Source of the DNA: Chiloscyllium plagiosum
Lineage: Eukaryota
Length of the DNA: 38,155 bases
Direction of reading: 5' to 3'
Assembly (NCBI RefSeq): GCF_004010195.1
Contig: NC_057749.1
Location: 8,744,293 to 8,782,447, forward strand
The notes beneath the pieces are model-generated. The model saw nothing but the letters and a program-made list of their open reading frames with translations. It did no database searches and had not been told where the DNA came from. The position numbers were made by a program, and so were the translations under genes. Each line of letters starts with the position of its first letter. Within the stretch, counting starts at the first letter, position 1. This document shows positions 885 to 37,243 of this stretch, piece after piece.

Positions 885-1160
885 GGGAGACAATGGCCAA
901 ATGTTATTATCTCAGGACTATTAATCCAAAGGAGAAAGTGAGGACTGCAGATGCTGGAGATCAGAGCTTAAAAATGTGTTGCTGGAAAAGCGCAGCAGGT
1001 CAGGCAGCATCAAAGGAGCAGGAGAATCGACGTTTCGGGTATAAGCCCTTCTTCCCTTCTTCAGGAAGAAGGGCTCCTGCCCGAAACGTTGATTCCACTA
1101 TTAATCCAAAGACTCTGGTAATGTTGTGGAAACTGTGGTTCGAATCCTGGAATTTGAATT
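885..1160 (+). mobile_element. tRNA-derived SINE (family 2) 5' part, interrupted by a PLE-like insert
   Basis: Matches the head of the 7048-7345 copy, with B-box GGTTCGAATCC at about 1137-1147. Split at the TSD 917-930/1097-1110. Confidence 0.6.
931..1096. mobile_element. PLE-like hammerhead-bearing element, partly palindromic, 14-15 bp TSD
   Basis: Starts GGAGAAAGTGAGGACTGCAGATGCTGG. Inverted GAATCGACGTTTCGGG / CCCGAAACGTTGATTC. TSD ACTATTAATCCAAA at 917-930 and 1097-1110. Confidence 0.8.
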
Positions 1161-1414
1161 CATTGCACATCTGAAGTGAAGAGTTTGATGATATAGATCT
1201 ATAAGTTGTGAGAATGCTGGGACAGGGGTTTTGGTTCTGAATGGTGTACATGATGGATGAAGGGAAAGGGTCAAGGGACATATGAAAGTTCCTCCTGCTC
1301 AACCCACCGAGAATGAGATTTTATTTTCCCTTACAGTCCAACCATGGAAATAATAAGCAGCAGAGAAACGTGTTGTCAAAACAGTTCAGGAAGACTAGTG
1401 ACCGTTGTTGATGG

Positions 1415-1710
1415 ATGGCTCAGTGGTTAGCACTGCTGCCTCATAGCACCCACAGACTTGGGTTCGATTCCACCTTGTGGCAACTCTGAGTGGAGTTTGT
1501 ACATTCTCCCTGTGTCTCCTGGTGCTCCGGTTTCCTCCCACAATCAAAGGATGTGCAGTTGAGTTGGATTAGCCTGGCCAAATTACCCCGTGGTGTGCAG
1601 GCTAGGGAGATTAGCTGTGGGAAATGCTCGGTCAGGGGTCTGGGAGCAATGGCCTTTGGAGGGTCAGTGCAAACCTGATGGATCAAATGGCCTCAATCTG
1701 CACTGTAGGT
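1415..1710 (+). mobile_element. HE1-type tRNA SINE (V-SINE)
   Basis: A-box TGGCTCAGTGG, B-box GGTTCGATTCC, V-domain GTGGAGTTTGTACATTCTCCC. Confidence 0.85.
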
Positions 1711-1714
1711 ATGC

Positions 1715-2045
1715 TGTGGTGGGATGCAGAAATCACCAGCATTAATTGCCCATTCTTAATTGTCCAGAGGCCAGTTAAAAGTTGCCCACATTACTGGAGT
1801 CACACATCGGTGAGACTGGGTAAGAATGAACAGATATCCTTCCTTAAAGAGCATAGTGAATCAGATGGGGTTTTTACATCAATAGTAAGATGGTCACCGT
1901 GAGGCCAAGTTTTAAATTCCAGATTTTTATTGAATTTAAATTTCACCATTTACTGTCATGGGATTTGAATCTACATCACCAATGCATGAGACTGGGTCTT
2001 TCTATTAATTCTCCAGCAGCAATATTACTCAGCCACTACTTCTCC
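1715..2045 (-). mobile_element. tRNA-derived SINE (family 2)
   Basis: Reverse complement of the 7048-7345 element (AATTCCAGATTTTTATTGAATT, GGGATTTGAA). Confidence 0.65.
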
Positions 2046-2061
2046 TGAACAAATGAAGGAT

Positions 2062-2265
2062 CATAGAGTCATAGAGATGTACAGCGTGGAAACGGATGCT
2101 TGGGTCCAACTCAGTCTAGCCCCATGTGCCAGCATTTTGCCCATATCTCTCTAAACCCTTCCAGTTGATGTACCCATCCAGATGCCTTTTAAATGTTATA
2201 TTCGTACCAGCCTCCACCACTTCCTCCAGCAGCTTATTCCACTTGCACACCATCTGGGAGTTGAA
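2062..2265 (-). mobile_element. HER1/CR1 LINE 3' end
   Basis: TCATAGAGTCATAGAG tail; minus-strand EEVVEAGTNITFKRHLDGY. Confidence 0.85.
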
Positions 2266-2754
2266 GCCTGCACCTCTCACATACTCACTCACCACACAGC
2301 CCAAAGCTGGAATCACAGCACTGGACCAATGAGCTGGTAAGATAATCTAAGTTCAGCAATGAGCAGATGGCACAGCATGGTGAGGTGGAGGGTATCGAAG
2401 GCTCAAGGTAGGGAGAGGGGCACCGGAGTAGTTTATCAGAGGGGAGGCAGGATGAGTCAACACTTTCAGAGATGGACTAGGCAAGACTAAACGATCCCAA
2501 TACTCGAAGGCAGCGAGGCGGTTGGGAGGAATAGGCTTAAGAACTCTGAGTGGGTAGGATGTGCCAGTTGAGATAAGGTTAGCCACATGAGAGATAGTAG
2601 GGCAGAGAGCAGACAGCTCACTCAATATGAGGATAGGATAAAGGAACAAGGCTGTCGAATAAGGTGGGTTAGAAATTAATCTCTACTGCCGTAAGACCAT
2701 AAACACTTTGAGGATGTCGCTGTTTGAGTTTCTCCAGCAATGTGTTTTTATGTT

Positions 2755-3042
2755 CCAACAGAGAAAATGCTGGAAAATCTCAGCAGGTCTGGCAGCATCT
2801 GTAAGGAGAGAAAAGAGCTGACGTTTTGAGTCTAATTGACTCTTTGTCAAAGCTAAAAAAAAGGGAGAAATAGGAAGATATTCATACTAGGTCCCCCTTT
2901 TTTTAGCTTTGACAAAGAGTCAGTTAGACTCGAAACATCAGCTCCTTTGTCTCCTTACAGATGCTGCCAGACCTGCTGAGATTTTCCAGCATTTTCTCTG
3001 TTGGTTTCAGATTCCAGCATCTGCAGTAATTTACTTTTATCC
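2755..3042. mobile_element. Palindromic PLE-like element with two inverted hammerhead motifs, 17-bp TSD
   Basis: Inverted arms of about 110 bp (about 2755-2865 and 2895-3004). TGTGTTTTTATGTTCCA at 2741-2757 and 3043-3059. Confidence 0.8.
2905..2943 (+). ncRNA. Minimal type-I hammerhead ribozyme motif, U3-A8 variant
   Basis: AGCT-TTGACAA-A-GAGTC-agtta-GACTC-GAAA-ca-TC-AGCT: stem I, core, stem II, GAAA, UH triplet, stem I. Mirror copy on the minus strand at 2816-2854. Confidence 0.6.
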
Positions 3043-3149
3043 TGTGTTTTTATGTTCCATTGTTCCCTGCCTATGTGTAGCAGTTACAGGGATCAAACAC
3101 AAGATGGAGCAAGAGAGAGATAATTCATGTTAAAACCTCCAGTTAAGAT

Positions 3150-4479: not shown

Positions 4480-5270
4480 AGTGAGGATGTTTTGCTTCAG
4501 TTCCATGGAGCATTAGTGAGATCACATCTCAAATACTATGTGCAGTTTTGGTCGTCTTATTTGCTGAAGAATGTAAAAGCAATGAAAGCAGTTCAGATGG
4601 ATTTGATACCTGGAATGAGTGAGTTATCTTTGAAGGAAAGGTTGGGCTGGAGTTTACAAGAGTAAGAGGGGGTGACGTTTTGAAGTGTTCAAGACCTTAA
4701 ATGGTCTTGACAAAGTGAACATGGGAAGAATGTTTCCTTGTGTGGGTGGGTCCACAACTCAGGGACACTGTTTTAAGATTCATCCTTCCAGGGTGGAGAT
4801 GAAGACATTGCTTGTTCCTTCAGAAGATGGAGGAGAAAGTGAGGACTGCAGATGCTGGAGATCAGAGCTGAAAATGTGTTGCTGGAAAAGTTCAGCAGGT
4901 CAGGCAGCATCCAGGGAACAGGAGAATCGACGTTTCGGGCATAAGAGAAGGGCTTATGCCCGAAACATCGATTCTCCTGTTCCTTGGATGCTGCCTGACC
5001 TGCTGCGCTTTTCCAGCAACACATTTTCAGCTCCTTCAGAAGATGTACAACTTGGGAACTCTCTGCCTCAGAGGGCAGTTGAGGTGGGACTGAGGTGGAG
5101 GGGAGGGTTGTCATTGAATATTTTTAGGAAGTAGATTCTTATTACACAAAGATGTCAAGGATTATCAAGGGTGGGTGGAAATTATGCATCTCTAACACAA
5201 ACAGAAGAGCAATGATTTTACTGAACGGTGGAATGAGCTTGAGGAAGCGAATGGTCTGTTTCTGTTTCAG
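4480..5270 (+). mobile_element. Older CR1-clade LINE 3' fragment, interrupted by a PLE-like insert
   Basis: GTGAGATCACATCTCAAATACTATGTGCAGTTTTGGTC (VRxHLxYxVQFW); FKTLNGLDKV; GNSLPQRAVEV. Confidence 0.75.
4830..5031. mobile_element. Palindromic PLE-like element, collapsed centre, 14-bp TSD
   Basis: Inverted arms of about 80 bp (4866-4945 and 4953-5032). TCCTTCAGAAGATG at 4816-4829 and 5032-5045. Confidence 0.85.
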
Positions 5271-5907
5271 AATTCTACATTCTCTGCTCTCCCACTCCTC
5301 CACTCCAGCCATAGCACAATGGTGTAGAATGCAGTCCAGTTGCCTCACTTTGTTTTTCAGTTTCCCTGAAAGACTCAAGAGGTCTGGAATCTCCCCATGA
5401 AGACTGAACTGAATAATTCTGCCAAGTTCATTTTATTTCTGAATATCAAATTAGTTGTTACTTTGAGATATGTAGTGATTGGGGGAATGAAATTGCCCTT
5501 CAAACCAGCCGGTGCAGAAATGATGGGCCTCCTCCTGTGTAGCATTGCTTTATATTTCTAAGATGTTGCTTTCAGAACCATCTCTCATCATCTTCTCTGA
5601 AGCACAGTTGTATTTTACTATTGAAAATGTGCCATATCATTACAAGTTGTACACCAGGCTTTCAAAATCTCTGAGGAGCATCCCAAAGCACACTGTGACG
5701 TCCATAAAATATAATGAACACATTGACTATCTTGTGGGCAACAAGATTCCACAAACTGTATTATAATGAGTGAATGGTCAATTGACTGGTTGGAGCTCAA
5801 CGAGGAAGGACAACATCAAGCAAAATGAAGTTTGGAACATGAAAAATAATTGGGGTGGGGGGGAGAGGGAACTGCAGGAGCTCGGATTGATTAGTTTTTT
5901 TGTGAGG

Positions 5908-6222
5908 GAGGGCTATGGAAGATGTAGGTGGGGCTGTGGAGATGTAGGTGGGGCTATGGAGATGTAGGTGGGAATATGGAGATTTAGGTTGGTCTATGGA
6001 AGATGTAGGTGGGGCTATAAAAGTATAGGTGGGTTATGAAAATATAGATGGGGTTATGGAAGATGTAGGTGGACCAATGGAGATGTAGGTGGGGCTATGG
6101 GTGGGGCTATGGAAGATGTAGGTGGGGTTATGGAAGATGTAGGTGGGGTTATGGAAGATGTAGGTGGGGCTATGAAGATGTAGGTGGGGCTATGGAATTT
6201 GGAGGTGGGGCTATGAAGATGT
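5908..6222. repeat. G-rich minisatellite, ~20-21 bp unit GGGGCTATGGAAGATGTAGGT
   Basis: About 15 imperfect tandem copies visible. Confidence 0.9.
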
Positions 6223-6469
6223 GGAACAAGGGGTCAGTGTGCGGATCAATTCTGATATAATTGGGAATCAAGGAAGGGCAACCAATACTGTCCTCACCAG
6301 AACCATGCCTGTCCAATTAAACAAAATAAATAAAAGACCCAGTGTAATCAATGACAGGGCATGTCCAAGGGTCTGTTTGGCATAGGGCCAATGTTACACC
6401 ATTATTTCAGCCTTTAGGTAAACTGCCTCTGCAGAACTTGTTGTTATGAATTGTTAACATTGGCAAGCC

Positions 6470-6800
6470 TGAGAAGTGAACTAGTGTCACATAGGAAATG
6501 TCACTTCACTAGTAATCTGGAAACCAAATTCCTGAGGGATTTCAGATCTGTTAGCAATATTGGAGCTGTTAATAAATCTGGAAATGAAAGTTACCTTCAG
6601 TATCGGTGACCATGACGACCAGCATCGTTGTAAAACCCCAGCTGATTCACAAATGAACTAGGGAAAGAAATCTGCCATTCTTACCTGGTCTGGCCTATAT
6701 GTGACTCCAGACCCACAACGAGGTCGACCTTTCTCTGGAACAGACCAGGAGGCCACTCAGTTCAAGGACATGATTCCCACATTCTGTATCAGAATGAAAG
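6470..6800 (+). mobile_element. tRNA-derived SINE (family 2), degenerate
   Basis: CTTACCTGGTCTGGCCTATATGTGACTCCAGACCCAC core shared with other copies. Confidence 0.6.
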
Positions 6801-8079: not shown

Positions 8080-8473
8080 AATGTGTGTTTGTGTGTGAGT
8101 GCGTGTTTGTGTACTTATGAGAGAGAAAGAGTGAGTGTGTGTGTGTGAATGAGTGAGTGTGACTGTGTGTGAGTGAGTGTGTGTGTGTGTGAGTGTGTGG
8201 TATGAGTGAGTGTGTGTGAGTGAGTGTGTGTATGTTATGAGTGAGTGTGTGTGAGTGAGTGCCTGTGTGAGTGAGTGCCTGTGTGAGTGAGTGTGTGAAT
8301 GAGTGAGTGTGTGAATGAGTGAGTGTGTGAGTGAGTGCATGTGTGAGTATGTGAGTGAGTGCGTGCTTGTGTGTGTTGTGTGTGTGCGAGAGAGAGTGAG
8401 TGTGTGTGTGAATGAGTGAGTGTGTGAGTGCGTGTGTGTGTGTTGTGTGTGAGTGAAGTGTGTGTGAATGTGT
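8080..8473. repeat. (GT)n/(GAGT)n compound microsatellite
   Basis: Direct inspection. Confidence 0.95.
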
Positions 8474-9696: not shown

Positions 9697-10018
9697 GATT
9701 AGATTAGATTCCCTACAGTATGGCAACAGGCCCTTCAGCCCAACAAGTCAATACCAACCCTCTGAACAGTAACCCACCCAGACCCAGTCCCCTACCCTAC
9801 ATTTACCCCTGGCTAATGCACCTAACACTACGGACAATTTAGCATGGCCAGTTCACCTAACCTGCACATCTTTGGACTGTGGAAGGAAACTGGAGCACCC
9901 GGAGGAAACCCACACAGACACGGGGAGAATGTGCAAACTCCACACAGACAATTGCCTGAAGGTGGGAATCGAACCTGGGTCCCTGGCGCTGTGAGGCAGC
10001 AGTGCTAACCACTGAGCC
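9697..10018 (-). mobile_element. HE1-type SINE, full length
   Basis: Reverse-complement A/B boxes at the right end, V-domain, and (AATCT)n tail at the left end. Confidence 0.92.
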
Positions 10019-10215
10019 AATTTGATTTATTTGATTTGATTTATTATTGTTGTCTGTACCTAGGTACAGTGAAAAGTGTTGTTTTGTGTGCAGTAAGGGC
10101 AGATCATCCCATACAAAGTGCATTAGGGTCATAGAACAGCGAGGAATACGATGTTACAGCTACAGAGATGACGCATAGAGAGTGAGAGCAATATTAAATT
10201 TAAAATTTGAGAGGG
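10019..10215 (-). mobile_element. Rex1/Babar-like LINE 3' UTR/tail
   Basis: Reverse complement matches the 3' end of 18455-18945 (TTTCACTGTAC..GGTACA..GACAACA..AAATCAAA). Confidence 0.6.
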
Positions 10216-11641: not shown

Positions 11642-11683
11642 NNNNNNNNNNNNNNNNNNNNNNNNNNNNNNNNNNNNNNNNNN
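11642..11683. other. Assembly gap (42 N)
   Basis: Run of N. Confidence 1.
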
Positions 11684-12384: not shown

Positions 12385-14630
12385 CGCTAATGAGAGACAC
12401 TGTGTCATTCAGGTAAAGGGACATCTGACTGAAGAGGTGCTGGAGGTTTTAAAACACATGAGTTGGAGGCTTTCAAAAGTGTGATAACAAGAGTTTGGAG
12501 GCATTATTACCCTTCACTCCTGTTAGAGTGAAGGGTAAGGCTGGTAAGAGCAGGGAGTCGTGGATGAGTAAAGACATTGAGGTTCTGGTCCAGCATAAGA
12601 AGGAGGCATAGTTAGATGTAGGAGAGAGTGAGGACTGCAGATGTTGGAGATCAGGGTCGAGACTGTGGTGCTGGAAAAGCACAACAGGTCAGGCAATGTC
12701 CGAGGAGCAGGAGAATCGACGTTTCAGGCAAGGGCTCTTCATCAGGATTGAGGATTTAGTTATAGACAGTTTGGATCAAGTGAATCTCTTGAGTGTAAAG
12801 GGTGTAGAGACATTCTTAAGAGGGAAATTGGGAGAGCAGAAAGCAGCCATGAGATTGCCTTGGCTGATAAGGTTAAGGATAATCCAAAGAGATTGTGCAA
12901 GTACATTAAGAGTAAAAGAACAACTAGGGAGAGAACAGGGCCCCTTAAAGATCAATGAGGTTGTCGATATGTTGAACCTCAGGAGGTCGGAGAGATACTG
13001 AATTAATATTTCACATCAGTTTTTACTAGAGAGAAAGAAATGGAGGCTAGGGAATTTGGGGAAATAATGATGTTATAAAACAGTTAATGTTACAGAAGAG
13101 GAAATGCTGGCAGAAAATATAAAGTTGGATAAATCTCTGGGACCTGATCAAGTGTATCCCAGGATGTTGTGGGAAGTTAGGGAGGAAATTGCAGGGCCCC
13201 AAGCAGAGGTATTTGTATTATCTGTAACCGTAAATGAGGTGCTGGAGGACTGGAGGGTGGCTAACGTTGTCTTTATTTAAGAAAGGCTGTAAGGAGAAGC
13301 CTGGGAACGATAGACCTGTGGGTCTGACATCCAGTAAGTTGGTGGAGGAGATTCTGAAAGATAGGATATTACATGCATTTGGAGGGGCAAGGACTGATTA
13401 GGGATAGTCAGCGTGGTGTTGTGGCGAGGGAAGTTGTGACGCACAAACTTGAGTTTTTTGAGGAAGTGACCAAAAAGATTGAGGGCAGAGCAGTAGATGT
13501 TGTTTACATGGACTTTAGTAAAGCCTTTGACAAGGTTCCGAATGCTAGACTAATTAGTAAAGTTAGATCACGTGGGATTCAGGATGAGCTTGCCAATTCG
13601 ATACAAAATTGGCTTTACAGAAGGAGAGAGAGGAAGGTATTGGAGGGTTGTTTCTGGAACTGGGGGCCTGTGACCAATGGTGTTCCACAGGGATTTGTAC
13701 TGTGTTCACTGTTGTTTATCATTTATGTAAACAATTTTGAAGAGAATTTAGGATGTGTTGTTAGTAAGTTCGCAGATGACGCCAAAATTGGTGGTATATT
13801 TGACAGTGAAGAAGGTTATCTAAGATTACAAAGAGATCTTGAACAATTGGGTCAATGGGCTGAGGAGTGGCAGAAGGAGATTGATTTGGATAAATGCGAG
13901 GTATTGCATTTGGGTAAAACAAACAGGGCAGGACTTGTACAATTAATGGTAGGGCCCTGGGTAGTGTTGTAGAACAGATATCTAGGGGTTCAGGTACATT
14001 TTTTTTTTAAATTTGCCTCACATGTAGACAGGATGATTAGGAACTCGCTTGGCACACTTGCCTTTGGTGCTCAGACCTAATGACTATAGGAGTTACATGT
14101 CATGTTGAGCTTATACAGGACATTGGTGAGGCCTTTTCCGGAGTTTTGGTGTCCCTGCCATAGAACGATATTATTAAATTGGAGATGGTTCAGAAAAGAT
14201 GTTGCTGGGAATGGGAAGGCTAGAGTTATAAAGATAGGCTGGGAATTTCTTTCACTGGAGCGTAGGAGATTGAGGGGTTGACCTTTTAAAAATCATGAGG
14301 GGCAAAGATAAGATGTATGGCAAGGGCCTTTTCCCTAGGGTGGGGGAATTCAAAACTAGGGGGTATATCTTTTCAAGGTGAAAGATTCAAAAAAGGCCCA
14401 AGGGAATGTCTTTTATACAGAGAGTGGTTCACTTGTGGAATGAACTGCCAGAGGAAGTGGTGGATGCACGCACAGTTATAACATTTAAAGAATTTTGAAT
14501 AAGTATGTGAATAGAAATAGTTTGGAGGGATATGGGCCAAATACAGGCAGGTGGGACTAGTTTAGTTTGGGAACATGTTTGGTGTGGATTAATTGGACTG
14601 AAGGGCCTGTTTCCTTGCTGTATGACTCAA
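12385..14630 (+). mobile_element. HER1/CR1 LINE, ~2.2 kb 5'-truncated copy with decayed RT
   Basis: ORF 13373-13972 has VDVVYMDFSKAFDKVP, GVPQGFVL and SKFADD. Frameshifted; CR1 3' tail present. Confidence 0.95.
12621..12749 (-). mobile_element. PLE-like hammerhead-bearing element nested in CR1
   Basis: Same start as 931 and 4830. Minus strand AATC-CTGATGA-A-GAGC-cctt-GCCT-GAAA-cg-TC-GATT. Confidence 0.8.
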
Positions 14631-16171: not shown

Positions 16172-16482
16172 TAGAATCCCTACAGTGTGGAAACAGGCCA
16201 TTTGGCCTAACAAGTCCACACTGACCCTCCGAAGAGTATCCCACCTAGACCCAATCCCCTACCCTATTACTTTACATTTCCCCTGACTAATGCACCTAAC
16301 CTACACATCCCTGACACTTTGGGCAATTGAGCATGGCCAATTCACCTGACCTGCACATCTTTGGACAATGGGAGGAAACCCACACAGACACTGGGAGAAA
16401 GACACTCGCCCAAGGCTGGAATCAAACCTGGTCCCTGATGCTGCGAGGCAGCAGTGCTAGCCACTGAGCCACCGTGCCGCCC
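16172..16482 (-). mobile_element. HE1-type SINE
   Basis: Ends in CCACTGAGCCACCGTGCCGCCC (reverse-complement head). Confidence 0.9.
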
Positions 16483-16494
16483 AAGGTGAATTTC

Positions 16495-17677: not shown

Positions 17678-18172
17678 TTATAGAATCATACAGCACGGAA
17701 ACAGACCCCTTGGTCCAACCAGTCCATGCCGAACATAATCCCACCTGCCTGCTCCTGGCCCATATTCCTCCAAACCTTTGCTTTTCATGTACTTATCCAA
17801 AAGTCTTTTAACAATTGTAACTGTACCCACCTGCACCACTTCCTCTGGAAATCCATTCCACACAAGAACCACCTTCTGGGTAAACAAAAAGAAATGCCCC
17901 TCATATCTTTATCATTCTTTTTCCTCTCACCTTAAAATTGTACCCCTAGTCTTTTCCCTAGGATGGGGGAATTTCAAGCCAACTACTGTTAACTCTATCT
18001 GTACCCCTCAATATTTTATGAACTTCTATGAGGTCGCCTCTCAACCTCTTATCCGATGAAAACAGTCCCAGCCTTTCTTTATAACTCAAACCTTCCTTAC
18101 TTGGCAACATCCTGGTAAATCTCTTCTGAACCCTCTCCAGCTTAATAATATCCTTCCTATAACTGGGTGACC
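17678..18172 (-). mobile_element. HER1/CR1 LINE 3' end
   Basis: Minus ORF FTQKVVLVWNGFPEEVV..RLLDKYM. Confidence 0.88.
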
Positions 18173-18194
18173 AACTGGGCAGTTAGTGTTAGCA

Positions 18195-18295
18195 ATAAAA
18201 ACAGAAAGTGCTAGAAAAGCTCAGCAGGTTTGGCAGCATTTGTGGAGAGTGAAACAGATGTTTCTCTTTCAAGTCCAGCGACTCTTTGTCAACCC
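18195..18295 (-). mobile_element. PLE-like element arm with U3-A8 hammerhead remnant
   Basis: Minus strand TTGACAA-A-GAGTC-gctg-GACTT-GAAA at 18292-18267. Confidence 0.6.
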
Positions 18296-18299
18296 CGAG

Positions 18300-18445
18300 A
18301 CAGGCTGTTTAACATCTCAGCTGAAAGACAGTACCTCTGACAATGCAGCACTCCCTCAGTAGTGAACTGGAATGTCAGCTTGGGTTCAAAGGTCAGCAGA
18401 GGGACTCAAACCTCTGACTCAGACATGAGTGTTATCCATAGCTAA
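18300..18445 (-). mobile_element. Deu-type SINE (SacSINE1/AmnSINE-like) 5' fragment
   Basis: TTTAACATCTCAGCTGAAAGACAGTACCTCTGACAATGCAGCACTCCCTCAGTAGTGAACTGG matches the recalled family consensus. Confidence 0.6.
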
Positions 18446-18945: not shown

Positions 18946-19652
18946 TATTCCAGAAAAGAAATGGACAACTGTTGTTGAAAATAATTTAACAGGGAAGGAA
19001 TCCCTAAGTGATTTGTCCCCCAGGTCTCTCCGTCCCAGCCCCAAGCACCGGCAAATCAGCAGAAAGCTAATGTTGGAAGTGAGTTGGGTTTTGATTGCTG
19101 GGTGAAATGTGATAAAATCCCTCTCGGGAACACAGACCCCGATTTGAACCTGAAACCTCACAACGAGCAGACCCCTCCAAACCAATGTAGGGGCTCTTCA
19201 AAGTCTCAGTGGTTACCCTGTTTTTTAAGGTTGGAAGCTGCTCTGTGTTTCTTTTTTTTTTGTTTGAGATTGCTGCTGCCAGACACTGCAAGCTGCACAT
19301 TGGGAAATTAATACGGCACGTGTACACTACCTGAAGGATGACCTGCAGCCACATCGTCAGCTGATGCTTCACCCTGAAGCCATTTTCTGACATGTAGTGT
19401 TTTGCTATTGCTGGTCACCCTCAGGCATGGGTTAAGGAACGCAATTCTAAGCTGGAGTTGAAGCAGGAATTGGGCTGTTGTTTTGCCTCTCAGCCATCTA
19501 ACCAGCGGAGCTAATCAATCACCCGAGGAAATTATCCTTTGTGACTTTAGGTTAAGATCGTGGATTTCACTCATTGAGCCCTGTTGGTGTCTGCCATTGC
19601 ACTGAGGAGCTTGGTTGTAAGGACCTCACAACCTAATCGATTTGCCATCAAG

Positions 19653-19755
19653 CAGTCCTGATGAAGGGTCACTGGACCTGAAATGTTAACTCTGCTTTCT
19701 CTCCACAGATGATGCCAGACCTGCTGAGTTTTCCCAGCCATTTCAGTTTTTGTGG
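19653..19755 (+). mobile_element. PLE-like element arm with hammerhead motif, sense to ARID3 intron 1
   Basis: CTGATGA(19658-19664)-A-GGGTC-actg-GACCT-GAAA-tg-TT-AACT. Confidence 0.7.
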
Positions 19756-19819
19756 CATAGAGTAGGCATCTGTTGGCACCCAGCTTTGTGTTGACGCTGT
19801 TTGGCTCTCTGGTTAAACG

Positions 19820-20235
19820 ATCTGACCAAGGCAAAGTAGCTCATTGGATTGCCACTGCATCCAGCACCTTCAATGTTCACTCCCTCTCCTCCACCACATG
19901 CTGTGAGGGCGTCATTGAGTGCCCTCTACAAGAAGTACTCGCCAAGACTTATTCAACATGAACCTTCCAAGTCCGGAACCTCAACCATCTAGAAGGACAA
20001 TGCAGCAGAGGCATGGGATCATAGAGTATCTCGAGTATCCATCCAACCCCACATCGTCCTGACTTAAAATATATCAGCTTTTCCTTCACTGTCGCTGGGT
20101 CAAAGTCCTGTCACTTCCTCCTGAGGGCATCTCAACAAGGAGAACAGCAGTGAAAGATGCTGGCTCAACACTGCCTCCTCCTGGGCAGTTAGGGACAGAC
20201 AACAATACGTGGGCAGAGCCAACACTATGAAAGAG
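19820..20235 (+). mobile_element. Old LINE 3' end (probable partner of SINE family 2)
   Basis: Homologous to 33250-33558 (CCTTCCAA..CCATCTAGAAGGA..CATGGGA; GGGCAGTTAGGGA tail). Confidence 0.6.
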
Positions 20236-20339: not shown

Positions 20340-20656
20340 GAATCTCCACATTGTAGAAGCAGGTGATTCGGCCCATTGAGTCCACACTACCCCGCCGAAT
20401 AGCATTGCACACAGACCCACTTCCCTACTCTATAACCTTGAATTTCCCATGGCTAGCCCACCTACCCTCCTCATCCCTGGGCACAATGGGCAATTTAGCA
20501 TGGCCAATCCACCCTGACCTGCACATCTTTGGACTGTGGGAGGAAACCCGTACAGACACAGGGAGAATGTGCAAACTCCACACAGACAGTCGCCTGAGGC
20601 TGGAATCAAACCCTAGTCCCTGGCGCTGTGAGGCAGCAGTGCTAACCACTGAACCA
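20340..20656 (-). mobile_element. HE1-type SINE
   Basis: Reverse-complement head and V-domain. Confidence 0.9.
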
Positions 20657-21070
20657 CTGGGACTTCTTTCCCCTGGAGTGACAGAGGCTGAGGGGTGACC
20701 TTATCGAGATTTATAAAATCATGAAGGTCATGGATAGGGTGAATAGCCAAGGTCTTTTTTCTGGGGTGCGGGAGCCCAAAACAAGAGGGCATAGGTTTAA
20801 GGCGAGAGGGGAAAGATTTTAAAAGGGACCTGAGGCGCAACTTTTTCACACAGAGGGTGGTATTTGTATGGAACAAGCTACTAGAGGAAGTGGTGGAGGC
20901 TGGTACAATTACAACATTTAAAAGACATTTGGACAGGAACATTGGGCAGGACGAGTTTAGAGGGATACAGTTCAAACATAGGCAAGTGGGTCTAGTTTAA
21001 TTTTGGGAAACCTGGTCGGTATGATGAGTTGTGCCGAAGGGTCTGTTTCCGTGCTGTATGAGTCTGCGAC
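20657..21070 (+). mobile_element. HER1/CR1 LINE 3' end
   Basis: CTGAGGGGTGACCTTATCGAGATTTATAAAATCATG through the tail GGGTCTGTTTCCGTGCTGTATG. Confidence 0.88.
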
Positions 21071-21530: not shown

Positions 21531-21534
21531 GCAG

Positions 21535-21960: not shown

Positions 21961-21985
21961 CTAAGTACCCGTCCCAATAAGATTT

Positions 21986-22030
21986 AAAACCGAGAATGCT
22001 GGAGAAACTCAGCAGGTCTGGCAGTATCTG

Positions 22031-22061
<31 letters not shown>

Positions 22062-22268
22062 AAAGTTGATGCTTCAAGTCCAGTGACCCTTTTCGGAACT
22101 GCAAGTATTTATGTACACTTTCCTAACTGTTATCAGTTTTGCAGAAGAGTTGCTGAACTCTAAGTGCTAACTTGTTTTCTGTCCACAGACGCTGCTAGAC
22201 CTGCTGAGTTTCTCCAGCAATTTCCATTTTTATTTCAGATCTTCAGCATCTGCAGTTCTTTTCTTTCA
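21986..22268. mobile_element. Older palindromic PLE-like element containing (GA)n
   Basis: Inverted arms GCTGGAGAAACTCAGCAGGTCT / AGACCTGCTGAGTTTCTCCAGC. Hammerhead cores decayed. Possible weak TSD GATTTAAAA (21981, 22275). Confidence 0.7.
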
Positions 22269-22386
22269 CAGTCGGATTTAAAATCGGTGCGATATCCACT
22301 GGAAGACTTAGTTTGCAGATTGTCAAAAGTACAGAAGATGAGCAGATGATGGAATTGGAGTGGTTAAGGTTGTGGAAGGCTTCTGT

Positions 22387-24422: not shown

Positions 24423-25354
24423 AGTGGAGTCATAGTTTGAACGTACAAGTTTCCATCTGTCGAAATGACTGCAACAGGATCAGGAGTGTAAGGTCCAGGA
24501 GAGATGCGAACTATCAGAGACCCTTTGTGCCTTCTTCACGTGCTCTTTACAGATCGCATTTGGGAAAGGTAGCTCCAGAATGGCTTGGAGTATCAAGGAT
24601 TGGGCTGTCCTTGTTCCACTGGCTGCTTTCTATGCGACCGCTGGGCGAGTTGTGAATTTTTCGGTTTAGAAGCATGAGATAACCAGGCGTGGAATCAGCT
24701 GAAGAGGTCGGAGCTGTGCTCCACCCCATTGCAGGTGTTTCAACATGTGGATGGGACCTAGGCTACAGTGTTGGTAACTAGTCAATGTAGCGGTGACTCG
24801 ATTCTCTATGTCACACGGACCGCGGAGAATTGCTTTCCGCCTCTTACCTGGAGGAAGCTCACTCACGGAGTGTCAGAAATGTTATGGTGAAGCAGGAGGC
24901 CGTTGGGTCCATCCTGCACGCCTGGCTCATTACCTAAGCGTCATTGCACTCATGTTCATGAGGAGGCTGACTCCAAGAGAACACATCCTCCATTGAGATA
25001 TTGCCTCTTCAAGCAACTGGAGTGAAATATGAAATAAATTGGTGGTGATGAGCTTTAGGAATACAAAGGGATCCTAATTTGAGGCACAGGAGGCTATTTG
25101 GCCCAGTCCTCAAAAAAGCTACCAGTTAGTTCCTCTTTTCCTGGAACCTGGCAAAAGTTTCCTTTTCTAAGTGAACGAAGATCCAATTCATTTTTGAAAG
25201 TTATTGTCAATTCTGCTTCTCACCCCCTTCCAAGTCAGTATTTTCTCTCGAAACAAAGCAAAAACTCTCAATTGACTTCTCTTGCCAATTAACTTGAATC
25301 TATCTCCCCTGATTATCCAACCTCCTGCCAGTAGCAATAGTTTCTTCTTGTCGT

Positions 25355-26700: not shown

Positions 26701-26974
26701 GTTCACTCAAAAATTCCAAATGAGTGTGCTTTTTCAGATCAGGAAATTCAATCCTTATGGCTGTTTCATGACTAACAGCCCCAAACGAAGGTGATTGACT
26801 CGAAAACATAAATTTCTGGTGGAACTCAGCAGGTCTGGCAGTAACTATGGGGCAGAAGTTAATACTTCGAGTCTAATGATGCTTCTCCATTAGCTCTCCT
26901 TCCTAGGAAGCCACTTAGTTATAGCAACTTGAAGTGGGTGAAGGGGGGGGGGGGGGCAGAAAAGAAAGGCCAGA

Positions 26975-27130: not shown

Positions 27131-27206
27131 ATCCAGAAAATAAACTGGGCACGAGTGACTCCAGTCTCCTTTTGAATGATATGATGTCTAGTGTGCTTGA
27201 ACATCC

Positions 27207-27320
27207 TAAGCCCGAAATGTCAGTTCTCCTGCTCCTTGGGTGCTGCCTGACCTGCTGTGCTTTTCCAGCACTATGCTCTCGATTTTGATCTCCAGAATCT
27301 GCAGTCCTCACTTTTTTTCC
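27207..27320 (+). mobile_element. PLE-like element arm, hammerhead core truncated
   Basis: GCCCGAAATGTC..CTGCAGTCCTCACTTT is the reverse complement of the 931-type arm. Confidence 0.75.
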
Positions 27321-27978: not shown

Positions 27979-28305
27979 GGGCGGCACGGTGGCACGGTGG
28001 TTAGCACATCTGCCTCACAGCACCAGAGACCCGGGTTCAATTCCCGCCTCGGGCAACTGTCTGTGTGGAGTTTGCACATTCTCCCCGTGTCTGCGTGGGT
28101 TTCCTCCGATTGCTCCGGTTTCCTCCCACAGTCCAAAGATGTGCAGGTTAGGTTAATTGGCCATGCTAAATTGCGTGTAGGTGAAGGGGTAAATGTAGGG
28201 GAATGGGTCTGTGTGGGTTGCTTTTCGGAGGGACAGTGTTGACTTGTTGGGCCGAAGGGCCTCTTTCCTCACTGTAGGGAATCAAATCTGTAAGTAATCT
28301 AATCT
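27979..28305 (+). mobile_element. HE1-type SINE, full length and young-looking
   Basis: CpGs retained; A/B boxes; (TAATC)n tail. Confidence 0.93.
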
Positions 28306-28429: not shown

Positions 28430-28682
28430 CTTCTCTCCTCTCTACACGCTCGCTCTCTCTCACTTTCTCTCTCGCTCTCTCTCTCCTTTTATGCCCTCTC
28501 TCCCTCACTTATGTTCAATATTTCTCTCTCTCTCTCTCCCTCATGCATCCCTCTCTGTGGTCCCAGGTTCTGTCATTCTCTTTCATGCTCTCTGGTTCTC
28601 TCTCGCTCTCTCTCTTGCGCTGTCTGTCTCTCGCGCGCGCTCGCTCTCTCTTGACCTCTTTCTATCTCCATGTCTTTTCTCT
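28430..28682. repeat. (CT)n-rich polypyrimidine tract with a (CG)n core
   Basis: Direct inspection; CGCGCGCG at about 28632-28640. Confidence 0.85.
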
Positions 28683-29540
28683 TGTGTCTTGCCTGTCATC
28701 AGCCCAATGGAGAGGAGGGGGACGGGGGAGTATTTCAAATCATTTCAATGATTGAACAACACTGATGTGGAATCCTGAATTGTGACCACTGCTCACTGCA
28801 GAGCTTGCTGGAGTGAGATGCAGGGTGGTTAGGATGTGTGTGTTTAACAGATCGCTGATGTATTAAGCAGTTTGAGGGAGTTGGGAGGTTGCTGCAGAGG
28901 AGAGCAATGAAAGATAGCGAGTAGTATATTTCTTGACAGAGTTGAGAGGTTATTAGTGTAACTGTACCACAAACCAGTGTTGGTAATAGCTGCCATCTGT
29001 TCGTATGAAAATTGAAACTGTGATGTTTGGCAGGTGGCCAAGCTGAGCTTTCAAAGAACACTCACCACAAGCCCCTCTGGCACAGCTCCTTGTTTTGGAT
29101 GGGTTTCAAAAGATTTATAACCAGCCCGTGCCAACAATACTTGGCCTGTCAAGAGCGCGAATATGCAGGTGCTTTAGCGTTGCTTAGCTCTTAATTGAAT
29201 TAACCGGCACCTGTCAGCAGGAGGCTTGCTGTGTGTTTTGCTGCCAAACACTGAGCTCTCTTGGCTGGAGCAGGACATCCCAAATTACTTGGGCATTTTT
29301 CATTCCTTCCTTCATTGGTGCAATCCCTTTCAGAGCATCCTGAGGCCAGCAAAGGTTACTGCTTTGAAGTAGATAGTACAGTGTCCTTCCTTCTGCGCTG
29401 TAAGATCATACCAATGATAAATACCAGATCGTTGGATGTTTGATTAAAATTGTTGGCCGGCATACCGAGGGTGAACGTGTTCCCCTCTTCGAAATAGCAC
29501 GGTGCGATTTCGACATTGCCTTGAGCTCCCTGTTATGTCA

Positions 29541-30293
29541 TGGCCCTCCGGCACTGCAGCACTCCCTCTGTTATACAGTGGCCCCTCCGGCCCTGCAGCA
29601 CTCCCTCTGTTATACGGTGGCACCTCTGGCACTGCAGCACTCCCTCTGTTATACAGTGGTCCCTCTGGCGTTATACAGTGGCACCTCCGGCACTGCAGCA
29701 CTCCCTCTGTTATACAGTGGCACCTCCGGCACTGCAGCACTCCCTCTGTTATACAGTGGCACCTCCGGCACTGCAGCACTCCCTCTGTTATACAGTGGCA
29801 CCTCCGGCACTGCAGCACTCCCTCTGTTATACAGTGGCACCTCCGGCACTGCAGCACTCCCTCTGTTATACAGTGGCACCTCCGGCACTGCAGCACTCCC
29901 TCTGTTATACAGTGGCACCTCCGGCACTGCAGCACTCCCTCTGTTATACAGTGGCACCTCCGGCACTGCAGCACTCCCTCTGTTATACAGTGGCACCTCC
30001 GGCACTGCAGCACTCCCTCTGTTATACAGTGGCACCTCCGGCACTGCAGCACTCCCTCTGTTATACAGTGGCACCTCCGGCACTGCAGCACTCCCTCTGT
30101 TATACAGTGGCACCTCCGGCACTGCAGCACTCCCTCTGTTATACAGTGGCACCTCCGGCACTGCAGCACTCCCTCTGTTATACAGTGGCATCTCCGGCCC
30201 TGCAGCACTCCCTCTGTTACACAGTGGCCCCTCCGGCACTGCAGCACTCCCTCTGTTATACAGTGGCATCTCCGGCACTGCAGCACTCCCTCA
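29541..30293. repeat. 39-bp minisatellite (GGCACCTCCGGCACTGCAGCACTCCCTCTGTTATACAGT), ~19 units
   Basis: Near-perfect central units, variant edge units, and one truncated unit near 29660-29680. Confidence 0.97.
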
Positions 30294-30829
30294 GTCCCAT
30301 TGGTCTGTGGAATGTGAATCTCTGACCCAAAGCTCAGAGTGCCGCTGTGGAGCCGCGGTTGACACCATCAAATGGGCTTGCCCTGAGGTAGTTCAGTATT
30401 CTTTTAAGATATCCTGCTTGCCTCCTGTCTGTCTCCACACCAGGCCCACATTCTGCCCAGTGCAATGAGGCATGATCTCCTGTCCGCTGTCACCTACTCT
30501 GCACACTCTCTATCCTACTCTGTGTTCCCTGTCCACGTATACAATATTCTTTACACAAGTGTTGATGGGCTGTGGGGTATGCTGATCAGAGGCACGTTCC
30601 CTTCAAGTCCCACCCTTCATGGCAATGAACTGCCTCTCTCCAAGGTGTCGGTCAGAATATGGAGCCCATGATGACGGCTTTGCCCAACTCCTCCTCCTGC
30701 AGGGCACTGAGACCAGTTTGAGAGTGCCTGGTGTGATTGCTGCACGGAAGGTGGCCATTCAGCCCGTTGAGTCTGTGCTGCTAACTATAAAGAACCAACG
30801 AGACAGAGTTCTGATGTATGAGAACGTGT

Positions 30830-31365
30830 CGGGTTGTGTGCGTGTGTATGTGTATCAATGTGTCTGGGCTGTGTGTGTAGTCAGTGCATTTGTGTTGTTG
30901 TATGTGTGTGCGTGTCACTATGTGAAAGTTAGCATATCAGTGTGTCTGGCACAGGTCATGTGTATCTGTGTCTGTATGCATTTAGGGGGTGTGTGTGTGG
31001 CTGTGTATGCATTAGGGGTAAGTCTGCTCTGTGTCTGCTGTATGTGTGTGCATCAGTGTGTCTGTTGTGTGTAGCTGTGTATGCATCAGTGTGTCTGCTC
31101 TGTGTGTGTGTGTGTAGCTATCAGTGTGTCTGCTGTATGTGTGTGCATCAGTGTGTCTGTTGTGTGCAGTTGTGTGTGCATCAGTGTGTCTGCTCTGTGT
31201 GTAGCTGTGTATGCATCAGTGTGTCTGCTCTGTGTGTGTGTTAAGCTGTGTATGCATCAGTGTGTCTGCTGTGTGTCTGCGTGTGTGTGTGTCTGCGTAT
31301 ATATTGGTATACCCAGTATTTGTCTTGGCAGTGTGTCTGCGCACTAGTGTGCATCTGTGCATGTG
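30830..31365. repeat. GT-rich low-complexity/minisatellite region (GCATCAGTGTGTCTG motif)
   Basis: Direct inspection. Confidence 0.9.
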
Positions 31366-32602: not shown

Positions 32603-32932
32603 TAGAATCATTCCAGTGTGGAAGCAGGTCATTCAGCCCATCGAGTCCACACTGACCTCCAAAGAGCATCCCACCCAGACCCACCCCAATACCCTATCAC
32701 TGCATTTCCCATGGCTAGCCAACCTAATCTGCACATCTGGGCAATTTGGCATAGCCAATCCACCCTAAGCTGCACATCATTGGAGTATGGGAGGAAACTG
32801 GAGCACCCAGAGGGGGCCTTCACATACATAGGGAGAATGTGCAAACTGGACACAGTCACCCGAGGCTGGAATTGAGCCTGGCTCCCTGGCATTGTGAGGC
32901 AGCAGTGCTAACCACTGAGCCACCATGCCGCT
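32603..32932 (-). mobile_element. HE1-type SINE
   Basis: GTGCTAACCACTGAGCCACCATGCCGC reverse-complement head. Confidence 0.88.
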
Positions 32933-33249
32933 CCAATCAAGTTGTTTGATTTGATCACCCTGGCATTGGGATATACATTCTACCTAGCGGGCATCAGCTG
33001 ATGCTGACATGTCTACATGACTTTGTTCAATTCTGTTGTGGACAGATATCTATATGATTAACAGTCATACCCCATTAGTGGGAAATATCACTTGCATTGA
33101 CACAGCATCGTGGCAAAGTAAAACCACTTGCTTCAACTGTTTTTCATTTTTTTGAGATACTTTGCCTCTCCAGAATAGATGATAAACTGAATGAAAAATG
33201 TTTTTTGAAAATTGAATCAATATATAAAATAAATTGAAGTGAATTTAGT

Positions 33250-33558
33250 GAAGACCTTCCAAACCCATAGCCACTTCCATCTAGAAGGATAGGGCAACAG
33301 ATACATGGGAACACCACCCCTTACAATATTCCCCCTTCAAGCCACTTACCATCCCAATTTGGAAATATATCACCGTTCCTGCAGTGCCATTGGGACAAAA
33401 TCCTAGAATTCCCTCAAGGGCATTGTGGGTCAACCCACAGCAGGTGGGCTACGGCGGTTCAAGAAGGCAGCTCACCATCACCTGCTCAAGGGGCAACTAG
33501 GGACTGGCAATAAATGCTAGCCCAGCCAGCAACGCACACATCCCATATATGAAAGAAA
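33250..33558 (+). mobile_element. LINE 3' end sharing its tail with SINE family 2
   Basis: GGGCAACTAGGGACTGGCAATAAATGCTAGCCCAGCCAGC..CATCCCAT. Confidence 0.65.
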
Positions 33559-33569
33559 AGGAACCCTGC

Positions 33570-33660
33570 TCAGATGCTGCCAGGCCTGCTGAGTTTCTCC
33601 AGAAGTTTCCGTTTTTGTGTGTTTCTGATCTCCAGCATCCGTGTTCATTTTTGCTTTATC
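33570..33660 (+). mobile_element. PLE-like element terminal fragment
   Basis: CAGATGCTGCCAGGCCTGCTGAGTTTCTCCAG..TCTCCAGCATC. Confidence 0.65.
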
Positions 33661-33844: not shown

Positions 33845-33940
33845 CCCAGGAGCAGGCAGGTGGGACTAGTTTAGTTTGCAATTATGGTCAGCATGGACTG
33901 GTTGGATTAAAGGGTCTGTTTCTGTGCTGTATGACCCTAT
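33845..33940 (+). mobile_element. HER1/CR1 3' tail
   Basis: GCAGGTGGGACTAGTTTAGTTTG..GGGTCTGTTTCTGTGCTGTATGAC. Confidence 0.8.
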
Positions 33941-33979
33941 ATCAAACTCTCGTGATAACTGGGTTGGCCGAATTATGAT

Positions 33980-34108
33980 GGAGGAGAAACTTCTGGAGAC
34001 GCTAGAGATCCGAGTTGAGAGTGTGATGCTGGAAAAGCACAGCAGGTCAGGCAGCATCCGAGAAGCAGGAGAATTGATGTTTCGGGCTAAAGCCCTTCAC
34101 CAGGAATC
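33980..34108 (-). mobile_element. PLE-like element arm, hammerhead with mutated core
   Basis: Minus strand ATTC-CTGGTGA-A-GGGC-ttta-GCCC-GAAA-ca-TC-AATT (A6 mutated to G). Confidence 0.75.
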
Positions 34109-34517
34109 TGGCTCAGAGGCAGGGGCAGGGCTGAGCCACAGGACCTCTCCATTGTTAATACACTGAACAGTTAGATGGCCACAGAGTGAGCTGGGTGTAC
34201 TCTGCTAGAATTGGAGAGAGCCGCTTTGGTTGTCAGACACTTGGATTGGCCTTGCTGCTTGGCCCATCTGAATCTCCTGATGTTCAATGACGTTGAGGGA
34301 AAGATGATGCAAATCTCTGGCAGCTGCTGCCTGATTGGTTGAAGTTGTAAATCAGAACCTACCTACTTAAATGAACAAAATGTTTGCCATGTCTGATACA
34401 CTTCTTTTAATTAAAGGGGCACATTGCTGTGGGTGAGAGTTCCTAAGAATGACTAACACATCCAGTGAAATGTTTTTTTTTAAGAGTTATTCAACTTGTT
34501 CATTGAAATGCTGGAAC

Positions 34518-34755
34518 TGGTTCGATTCCACCCTCGGGCAGCTGTCTGTGTGGAGTTTGCACATTCTCCCTGTGTCTGCGTGGGTTTCCTTCGGGTACTC
34601 CGGTTTCCTCCCGCAGTCCAAAGATGTGCAGGTCAAGGTAGATTAGCCAGGCTAAATTGCCCGTAGTGTTCAGGGATGTACAAGCTAGGTGGGTTAGGCA
34701 TGGGAAATGCAGGGCTATGGGTCAAATGGCCTGCTTCCACACTGTCAGGATTCAC
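34518..34755 (+). mobile_element. HE1-type SINE, 5'-truncated
   Basis: Starts at B-box GGTTCGATTCC; V-domain present. Confidence 0.85.
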
Positions 34756-34759
34756 TGAT

Positions 34760-34962
34760 CAAAGGGACAAGGTAAGGGCCTAAGTTTTCTTCCCTAAAGC
34801 ACCAATGTTCGCCTTTCCAACAAACGATTTGTGGTCATGAATTCCAGATTTTTATTGATTTCAAATCGGCCGGATGGGATTTCAATCCCAGGTCCCCAGA
34901 ACATTACCCGGATCTCTGGATTAACAGTCCAGTAACAGTGCCACTAGGCCATCGTCTCCCCA
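34760..34962 (-). mobile_element. tRNA-derived SINE (family 2) 5' part
   Basis: CCACTAGGCCATCGTCTCCC reverse-complement head. Confidence 0.7.
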
Positions 34963-35927
34963 GCAGGATCTTTCTGGATCTGGAGAGGATGGGAGAAAAT
35001 TGGAAAGAAATTTTTAAAACCAAAAAAGTAATTTCCCTAGATTTTAGCAACCCAGTGTATTGAGGCACCTCAGAGTGCAACGCATGCAGGATGGAGAAAA
35101 GTTAAATTTTGTTTTGTTTTCTACATACTGTTACAAACTTAAGAATAAAGAGTATTTCTAGAGTGTTTTATCTCTTAAAAATTGTCAATATAACTTTAGA
35201 ATATCATTCATCTATTTAATTATTCCCATATTTTTGCCAATAGCCAAGTTATTGAAAGTGATTGTGATATCTTTTTAACTTCCCTCTTCTATCTGATGGG
35301 AGTGCCCCCATACTGTGTCAGTCCATTTGTCCTCCATTTTCACAAGCCTGTTGCTCGTCATTGATGGAAGCCTTTTGAATGTTGACCCTTCATTGTGCCA
35401 CCAGCACAAGAGTAAATAATTGTTGAACAAGTAGGCCAACAAAAGAACTGCAACCGGATGCTGACATCAGGCAGAGGAGGGGGTGGGGGAGACTTGTCAA
35501 CACTGCGGCCTAGTGGAAAAGGCCTCAGTCACTTTCACCTCAGCCCAGACTGCCTCATAAATCCATCAGAGCTCTCCTGTCAGTGCTGAAGCTCCCACAT
35601 TGTTTTCCTGATCTGGGAGTTTAACTCGGAGGGTGTTTTATTTTCTGGAAAGTGGGGGTGAGGGGTTGGGGTGTTGGGAAAGAATGATAAAGTGATGTTT
35701 TAGTCAACACTATAGACAGCTGCTCTGTATAAAAGGCTGTCAGGTTCTGTCCACACAATTCACTGAGCAGCCAAGGCAGGAAAGAGAATGAGAGTGTCAT
35801 CAAACGTAATGTGTTCTCACCATAGTGTCAAACATTAGTGTGCACTGTTAGAAAGTTTTTTTTTAACTTTAGTAAGTACCAGTTGTTTGGGTGAGATGTT
35901 AAATGGCGTCCCCAATTTCCTCTCAGC

Positions 35928-36465
35928 CAGAGTCCTACAGCATGGAAACCGACCCTTCAATCCAACCAGGTTTCCCAAATGAAAATAGTCCCACTTGCTT
36001 GCATTTGACTCATATCTCTGTAAATCTTTCCTATTAATGCATCTGTCCAAATCTCTCTCCAATGTTGTAACTGTACCTGCATCCACCACACCCTCGGGCA
36101 GTTCGTTCTGCCTACCACCCACCCTTTGTGTGGAAAAAGTTGTCCTCCGGTCCCATTTAAATCCATCTCCTCTCATTCTAAAATGATGCCCTCTTGTTTT
36201 GAACTCCCCCAGGGAAAAGACTTTTACTGTTCACCTCATCTATGCCCCTCATGATTTTATAAACCTTTGTAAGGTCACCCTTCAACCTCCTACGCTGCCG
36301 GGGGAAGAATTCTTGGCCTATCCAGTCTCTCCTTCTAACTCAAACCCTCCAGTCCCAGTAACATCCGTACAAATATTTCTGTATCCTTTCCAATTTAATA
36401 ACATCCTTCCTATAGTAGGGCAACCAGAACATAAAACAGTGCTCCAACAGTGCCTTCACCAACTG
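35928..36465 (-). mobile_element. HER1/CR1 LINE 3' end
   Basis: Minus ORFs LVKALLEHCFMFWLPYYRKDVIKLERIQK and ELPEGVVDAGTVTT. Confidence 0.88.
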
Positions 36466-37065
36466 GATATTAAAGACCCCTGTGTCAAAAAGGTAAGGCT
36501 GGATTCTCCGACATGTGACAGTCCATGTTATCCTTTTAATTAACATTAAAGACTACCCAGTCATCAACGCACGACTGGTGCCAACACCTACATTATAGTA
36601 GCCAGGACACTTCAGAGTGTTTCATTGACTGTATGGCGATTTTGGGATGTGGTGAAGTTGTGAAAGACGCTATTTAAAATGAAACCCCTTCACTTCTGGG
36701 AGTTTGCTGAATGGATCGAGTTCACTGAGGTTCTAACGACCTGGACTGTCACAGGAGCTTCAGTGTGTTGTAGGACTTGAAAGGGTTAACTGACATCTCT
36801 AGAGAAGCTCCACCCATTAGCTATAGAACACGGTGTTCCTGGGTGGAGCTAACTGTTTCTCCATTGATTCGCCATGTGTCTGAACAGGTTCTTGAGTTGT
36901 TCTCTCTGTAAATAGCACATCGCTAAAGCAGTAGTTGTGCTTACTTTTACCTTGAGTTCAGTTGTCCCTTAAGACCAGCATGAGTTTGAGATATAATGTT
37001 ACCAGCCGTTAAGTCATCTGGAATGAACCAATTTACTCTACAAGAAGATTCAATTACTCTACTGT

Positions 37066-37243
37066 GGAGAAAGTGAGGACTGCAGATGCTGGAGATCAGA
37101 GATTAGAGTGTGGTGCTGGAAAAGCACAGCAGGTCAGGTAGTATCTGAGTAGCAGGAGAATCAATATTTCTGGCATAAGTCCTCTTGGATCCCTGATGAA
37201 GGGCCTGTCCCCGAAACGTTGATTCTCCTGCTCCTTGGATGCT
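37066..37243. mobile_element. Partly palindromic PLE-like element with + strand hammerhead motif
   Basis: Arm as at 931. CTGATGA(37193-37199)-A-GGG..CCC-GAAA-cg-TT-GATT in the inverted arm. Confidence 0.8.

Follow-up and report, generated by a model that had tools for sequence, protein, structure and literature searches.

Short elements with a minimal hammerhead motif in a Chiloscyllium plagiosum contig and their probable origin from Penelope-like elements

About once in every 2.7 kb, a 38,155-nt stretch of the Chiloscyllium plagiosum genome (NC_057749.1 in assembly GCF_004010195.1, positions 8,744,293-8,782,447; hereafter the window, to which all positions below are relative) carries a short repeat, often in palindromic form. 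What are these repeats, and by what route did they reach their present sites? We conclude that they are probably dead copies of short retroposons from three related families, and that each family corresponds to the module at the 3' end of a Penelope-like element (PLE), that is, a minimal type-I hammerhead ribozyme followed by a tail of 95-120 nt. Self-comparison of the window and inspection of each site by eye (which also set some of the boundaries) gave 14 elements of 93-285 bp, whose summed parts cover about 2.2 kb of the 38 kb. A first-pass annotation of this DNA had listed 12 positions and at least three subfamilies; an element is present at all 12 of these positions, two more were found (26796-26897(-) and 33558-33650(+)), and the elements fall into three families, A, B and C.

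Family A has six members, A1 (932..1096), A2 (4830..5031), A3 (12621..12756, (-) strand), A4 (27198..27311, (+)), A5 (33980..34109, (-)) and A6 (37066..37243). Family B also has six, B1 (2758..3042), B2 (18163..18298, (-)), B3 (19652..19785, (+)), B4 (21993..22274), B5 (26796..26897, (-)) and B6 (33558..33650, (+)), and family C has two, C1 (350..461) and C2 (22378..22503, (-)). Families A and B are about 67-76% identical and are homologous along their full length, ribozyme and tail alike. The likeness of family C to these two is limited to the layout and to a CCAGCATCT box near the 3' end. Of the six exact matches to CCAGCATCT in the window, five are close to the 3' end of an A, B or C copy; the sixth, at 20155(-), is outside every element and was set aside.

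The hammerhead motif

Each family has one constant end, and the strand that finishes there in the 3' direction always carries the motif; this strand was taken as the sense of the RNA template. The motif consists, in order, of one strand of helix I, CUGANGA, an unpaired A, helix II, GAAA, a palindromic dinucleotide, UH and the second strand of helix I, beyond which the tail begins. It was parsed in the 11 arms that extend far enough in the 5' direction. Ten of these have the full layout, including the unpaired A between A9 and 10.1, and in the remaining one (B5) the register is uncertain; the arrangement described in the first-pass annotation, with its extra A, is therefore the one we find. The helix I strand is about 4 nt long, and helix II has 4 bp in family A and 5 bp in families B and C. 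The dinucleotide after GAAA is CG (or CA/TG, as expected from CpG decay) in families A and B and GC in family C. Helix II is completely paired in 8 of the 11 parsed arms, and 5 of them have a run of four contiguous pairs in helix I. All four versions of helix II that had been named (GGGC/GCCC, GAGTC/GACTC, GGGTC/GACCT and GGAGC/GCTCT) are present and paired.

These features are those of the minimal hammerheads that have been described in the flanking repeats (pseudo-long terminal repeats) of PLEs (Cervera & de la Pena 2014, PMC4209133). Such hammerheads have no helix III, a palindromic 15.2-16.2 pair, a G10.1 that pairs with C or U11.1, a helix I of 4-5 bp and an unpaired nucleotide between A9 and 10.1, and they occur as many families per genome with abundant compensatory changes (PMC4209133). 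The motif in the window shares with them the CUGANGA and GAAA boxes, the lack of a helix III of its own, the palindromic dinucleotide, the unpaired nucleotide, a helix I of about 4 bp, and the occurrence of several families related by compensatory changes. In an alignment of eight arms, the 10.1-11.1 pair is G-C in five arms and G-U in three, and 15.2-16.2 is C-G in three rows, U-G in two and unpaired in three. Helix II is shorter here (4-5 bp) than the 7-8 bp of the schistosome minimal hammerheads, and, unlike in that report, no copy in the window is inside a full PLE (PMC4209133). Most of the copies described there are isolated and are regarded as truncated PLEs, and some form opposite-strand pairs 100-700 bp apart (PMC4209133); the window likewise has both isolated copies and pairs on opposite strands.

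The motif is far more frequent than chance would provide. A strict descriptor finds two sites, 19658-19687(+) and 22501-22473(-), where 0.005 are expected (none of 200 dinucleotide shuffles reaches two); with one mismatch allowed in helix II it finds four against 0.035 expected (none of 200 shuffles reaches four), and a loose pattern has 10 matches against a shuffle mean of 4.07 (none of 100 shuffles reaches 10). The pairing is also maintained through sequence change. Across the eight-arm alignment 88.2% of the cells are paired, compared with 15.3-41.6% when the partners are slid by 1-3 columns, and changes on both sides are present in 7 of the 11 pairs, compared with 0-2 in the slid registers; none of 500 shuffles reaches the observed paired share or covariation score. 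By helix, both sides have changed in 3 of the 4 pairs of helix I and in 3 of the 5 of helix II, the latter bearing out, in an alignment of few independent lineages, the covariation that had been proposed for stem II. A covariance model built on the eight arms recovers three arms outside its training set, both arms of A1 (E 7.8e-06 and 1.2e-4) and the right arm of A2, all with E from 7.8e-06 to 1.2e-4. B2 and B5 are matched weakly (E 0.032 and 0.18, respectively), and two further matches, at 6463-6510 (E 0.066) and 25188-25216 (E 0.088), were judged to be due to chance after inspection by eye. By its boxes, its unpaired nucleotide, its palindromic 15.2-16.2 pair and its compensatory helices, the motif is thus supported as a minimal hammerhead of the PLE type.

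Ends of the elements and a proposed mode of insertion

Each family has a constant 3' end and a variable other end. Clear target-site duplications of 10-17 bp flank six of the 14 elements: C1 (334-349 / 462-477, 16 bp with one mismatch), A1 (917-931 / 1097-1111, 15 bp, exact), B1 (2741-2757 / 3043-3059, 17 bp, exact), A2 (4816-4829 / 5032-5045, 14 bp, exact), B4 (21981-21992 / 22275-22286, 12 bp with one mismatch) and C2 (22366/8-22377 / 22502/4-22513, 10-12 bp). No convincing duplication was found at the other eight, and none of the 14 ends in poly(A) or a microsatellite. Duplications of variable length, together with a constant 3' end, indicate retroposition and not cut-and-paste transposition.

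Six of the elements (A1, A2, A6, B1, B4 and C1) are head-to-head inverted pairs, and the other eight are single-armed. In every one of the six, one arm stops partway through the tail, directly against the duplication, and the other extends to the full 3' end. The longer arm exceeds the shorter by 37 nt in A2, 41 nt in B1 and 42 nt in C1 (in the last at the outer end), and by about 51-92 nt in B4, A6 and A1; both alternative 3' termini are located downstream of a CCAGCA box. A2 and A6 turn round in the helix II loop, A1 does so in the core, and B1 about 20 nt 5' of it. Since the turning point varies among copies, the palindromes must have formed during insertion rather than been copied from a master that was already palindromic.

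According to the available part of Craig et al. (2021, PMC8557442), the hallmarks of PLE insertions are a heavily truncated 5' end, a neighbouring copy that is inverted and also 5'-truncated, and, at one end only, a tail of 30-40 bp. The constant 3' and variable 5' ends, the inverted pairs and the one-sided extensions of 37-42 nt in three of them agree with this description; the extensions of 51-92 nt in the other three pairs differ from the 30-40 bp given in that part of the report. These hallmarks, the minimal hammerhead features (PMC4209133) and the 10-17 bp duplications without poly(A) together support the earlier proposal that the elements are PLE derivatives. A further parallel is the Anolis Poseidon element PAc, whose protein, in the portion of the published account at hand (PMC11167929), cuts and extends both DNA strands, with reverse transcription starting internally, within about 170 nt downstream of the hammerhead; there the ribozyme cleaves only with the protein present, and ribozyme mutants leave insertion in vitro unaffected. 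The hammerhead here is comparably placed, about 100-120 nt from the 3' terminus. Unlike PAc, whose open reading frame (ORF) begins inside the hammerhead according to the same portion of that account, the tails here have stops in all frames in the copies inspected by eye.

The elements could have been formed as follows. A PLE protein with reverse transcriptase (RT) and GIY-YIG activities would, as in published PLE biology, have bound the tail of the RNA and cut the target with a stagger. Target-primed reverse transcription would then have started the cDNA at one of at least two sites near the 3' end, and synthesis would have run back through the ribozyme, usually ending at it or just 5' of it. 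The inverted arm may have come from priming on the second DNA strand, or from fold-back at the helix II hairpin. The hammerhead of the source transcript would have had no helix III of its own, the ACGU or AGCU palindrome pairing instead between two copies, and it may have cut as a dimer or with the help of protein and so have processed multimeric PLE RNA; PLE hammerheads reportedly act as dimers. A consensus fold of nine tails allows a long-range stem, on which we base no claim because just one of its 12 pairs shows a double change, and a metagenome scan with a 32-nt motif from the tail gave no matches.

As judged partly by eye, the 5' end is 0-13 nt before the core in about 10 of the 20 arms, inside the ribozyme in five, in the tail in three and about 20 nt before the core in two. 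Beyond that last distance, unlike in known PLE insertions, no family sequence is common to the arms. This clustering near the core, with nothing in common upstream, is a hint from only 14 elements that the RNA had a defined 5' end. We therefore offer, as a tentative suggestion that we would not call probable, that the families are not randomly truncated PLE ends but a dedicated minimal parasite of PLEs, about 125-160 nt long and made up of the hammerhead and an RT-binding tail only. The 5' end of such an RNA would be fixed at helix I, and the one-sided extension of 37-42 nt would follow from a choice between two start sites for reverse transcription, both of which have a CCAGCA box upstream. 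If this is correct, one would expect an autonomous PLE whose resemblance to these families is confined to the tail and its CCAGCAUCU box; no smaller unit moved by PLE machinery would be known, and the copies would be a natural map of the needs of that machinery. The tendency of 5' ends to fall at the ribozyme, together with the common 3' box, could help to define the minimal RNA that is recognised by PLE RTs.

In some family B copies the sequence just before helix I is a YAG that follows a pyrimidine-rich run (B1) or a CTAAC word (right arm of B4); these sites (2890-2908, 19646-19657, 22120-22138 and 22097-22105(-)), which are few, resemble a 3' splice site. An intron that ends at the 5' edge of helix I has been reported in the Drosophila virilis Penelope (PMC4209133).

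Points of doubt and rival origins

Several of our observations weigh against an origin as PLE modules. None of the 180 stop-to-stop ORFs of at least 60 amino acids that were scanned, out of 224 in the window, encodes a GIY-YIG domain or a PLE-type RT (most of the other 44 run through tandem repeats or are among the shortest). The catalytic boxes are all intact in only 4 of the 11 parsed arms, those of A3, B3, C2 and the right arm of A6. The remaining arms are mostly 1-3 changes from intact boxes, many of these at CpG (for example ACGU to ACAU or AUGU). In C2 the target-site duplication abuts CUGAUGA, so the copy lacks its own helix I strand and its apparent helix I of 3 bp makes use of flanking DNA. 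Only 2 of the 14 elements pass the strict descriptor, and the covariance model did not recover C2, or family C at all, in its search of the window. The covariation comes from eight related sequences that represent perhaps three or four independent lineages, and the secondary structure was derived from the same sequences that were used for the counts. Folded as single strands, five motifs have energies that are not unusual relative to shuffles (z from -0.15 to -1.84, and +0.71 for A3); the fold of the right arm of B1 is exactly helix I plus helix II. Finally, an Rfam scan of the window gave no match at the gathering score, and among its 16 matches with E <= 10 there is no hammerhead family. Rfam's hammerhead families are type I, type II, type III, HH9 and HH10, and such a miss is to be expected with a motif that has no helix III.

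Since so few arms keep all of the catalytic boxes, the copies in the window are fossils; they no longer function, and most of their cores are mutated. The first-pass annotation's description of the elements as ribozyme-bearing needs correction for C1, A4 and B6, which are cut off 5' of or within the ribozyme and so lack a complete one, and most of the cores that remain have decayed.

The first rival is that the elements are monomeric offspring of non-LTR retrozymes, in which a tandem transcript would have cleaved itself and been circularised, and the circular RNA reverse-transcribed. Retrozymes are likewise short, non-coding, hammerhead-bearing and probably PLE-dependent, with duplications of more than 4 bp, as far as the available parts of two reports go (PMC7229834; bioRxiv 10.64898/2026.07.22.740005); the accessible part of the latter derives animal retrozymes from PLE repeats, includes one cartilaginous fish among the carriers and describes dispersed monomer copies. 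The arm size here, about 125-160 nt, is also near the lower range of the published units. On the other hand, retrozymes are characterised, in the available part of PMC7229834, by head-to-tail tandems, circular RNA and canonical type-I hammerheads with the loop-loop contacts that define the animal ones, whereas none of the 14 elements here is a head-to-tail tandem and the motif is minimal. A copy of a circle would, moreover, lead from the 3' end of the tail into the sequence 5' of the ribozyme, and no such continuity is seen. We consider this origin improbable.

A second possibility, which we judge slightly less probable again, is that these are ordinary elements of the short interspersed nuclear element (SINE) kind, mobilised by a host long interspersed nuclear element (LINE), in which the hammerhead-like motif has nothing to do with Penelope biology. 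LINE fragments are certainly abundant in the window. The only RT found there, at 13358-13969(+) (Pfam RVT_1, E 1.4e-17), is on the strand opposite to that of its neighbour A3, has an R2 non-LTR protein as its closest solved structure and, by eye, contains an FADD motif; the fragment derives from a LINE and not from a PLE. Repeated LINE-like 3' tails (families D6 and D11) are present as well (at about 298, 4420, 14587, 15230, 15407, 21023, 21912 and 33896), and duplications of 10-17 bp would also be compatible with LINE-type integration. However, the tails of the A, B and C copies resemble nothing in the window except one another (E <= 1e-3), and the elements have neither a poly(A) or microsatellite tail nor a tRNA-, 5S- or 7SL-like head. 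Overlapping inverted arms in six of the 14, with one-sided extension, are a signature of PLEs and not of LINEs in the available part of PMC8557442, and the motif agrees with the minimal hammerheads of PLEs in features that were outside the search pattern. The weakest rival, that these are DNA transposons of the miniature inverted-repeat transposable element (MITE) kind or plain hairpin repeats with hammerhead words by chance, is hardly credible: six elements are indeed palindromic and two have sub-threshold matches to microRNA hairpin families, but the duplications are not of fixed length, the arms are unequal, eight of the 14 elements are single-armed, the turn-round point varies, the motif count is far above that in shuffles, and pairing is kept through double changes.

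The kind of element is already well described, and the copies in the window add another example of it. We found no description of families A, B and C in the literature searched, of which the preprint 10.64898/2026.07.22.740005 was available in part and may list such families in its supplements, and among the titles and abstracts listed by the one search aimed at such elements in cartilaginous fish, none deals with hammerheads in these animals. For ribozyme biology the families add another vertebrate lineage to a known pattern. A sizeable share of the window consists of Penelope-type hammerhead modules. Such modules escape standard searches for RNA families, and in repeat annotation they could be taken for SINEs, MITEs or microRNA hairpins. 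An inverted PLE insertion could pass for a microRNA-like hairpin or could even become one. Two of the pairs in the window match microRNA precursor families below threshold, B1 at 2813-2946(-) (59.7 bits, cut-off 90) and A2 at 4912-4986(-) (46.3 bits, cut-off 100).

Individual copies and neighbouring repeats

The inverted pairs differ considerably in their state of preservation. The two arms of B1 are about 92% identical and both carry ribozyme motifs (2850-2820(-) and 2909-2939(+)), the cores of which have decayed to UUGACAA. Those of A2 are about 91% identical and meet within helix II. The arms of A6 have diverged further (about 76% identity); its right arm has the ribozyme with all boxes intact at 37193-37220(+), with 3 of 4 helix II pairs. 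The arms of B4 are strongly diverged, with motif starts at 22096(-) and 22139(+) and a (GA)n run in the left arm. In A1 the long arm, on the (-) strand, has CUGAAGA at 1064-1058 and an internal 8-nt duplication, and the short arm is at 1065-1096(+). C1 is a pair of tail fragments that has not retained the ribozyme.

Among the single-armed copies, the three with intact boxes are A3 (ribozyme at 12745-12718(-), helix I of 4 bp, 3 of 4 helix II pairs), whose 5' boundary is uncertain and marked only by a weak 8-bp repeat, B3 (19658-19687(+), helix II GGGUC/GACCU), both of whose boundaries are uncertain, and C2 (22501-22473(-), helix II GGAGC/GCUCU, a GC palindrome and a UA cleavage site); B3 and C2 are the two that the strict descriptor finds. 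A5 has the core CUGGUGA, in which A6 is changed, with helix II paired at 4 of 4 positions and both CpGs around the cleavage site decayed. B2 has all five helix II pairs, a decayed core and an insertion of 6 nt after GAAA. B5 is a decayed copy, A4 ends within helix II and has only GAAAUGUC and the tail left, and B6 is a tail fragment.

The window contains other repeats besides the LINE-like tails. A four-copy repeat (9960-10032, 16412-16484, 20597-20669 and 32863-32935), whose reverse complement looks tRNA-like by eye, is a probable tRNA-derived SINE, and longer inverted pairs related to it are present at 9828-9978 / 28030-28180. Low-complexity arrays occupy 5897-6236, 8081-8455, 30959-31307 and 28447-28680 and comprise a repeat of about 21 bp, GT/GAGT-rich arrays and CT-rich runs, and there is a run of 42 N at 11642-11683. 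A minisatellite at 29514-30437 is built of about 24 copies of a 39-bp unit, the central ones identical, and a single related unit at 18333-18376 adjoins B2.

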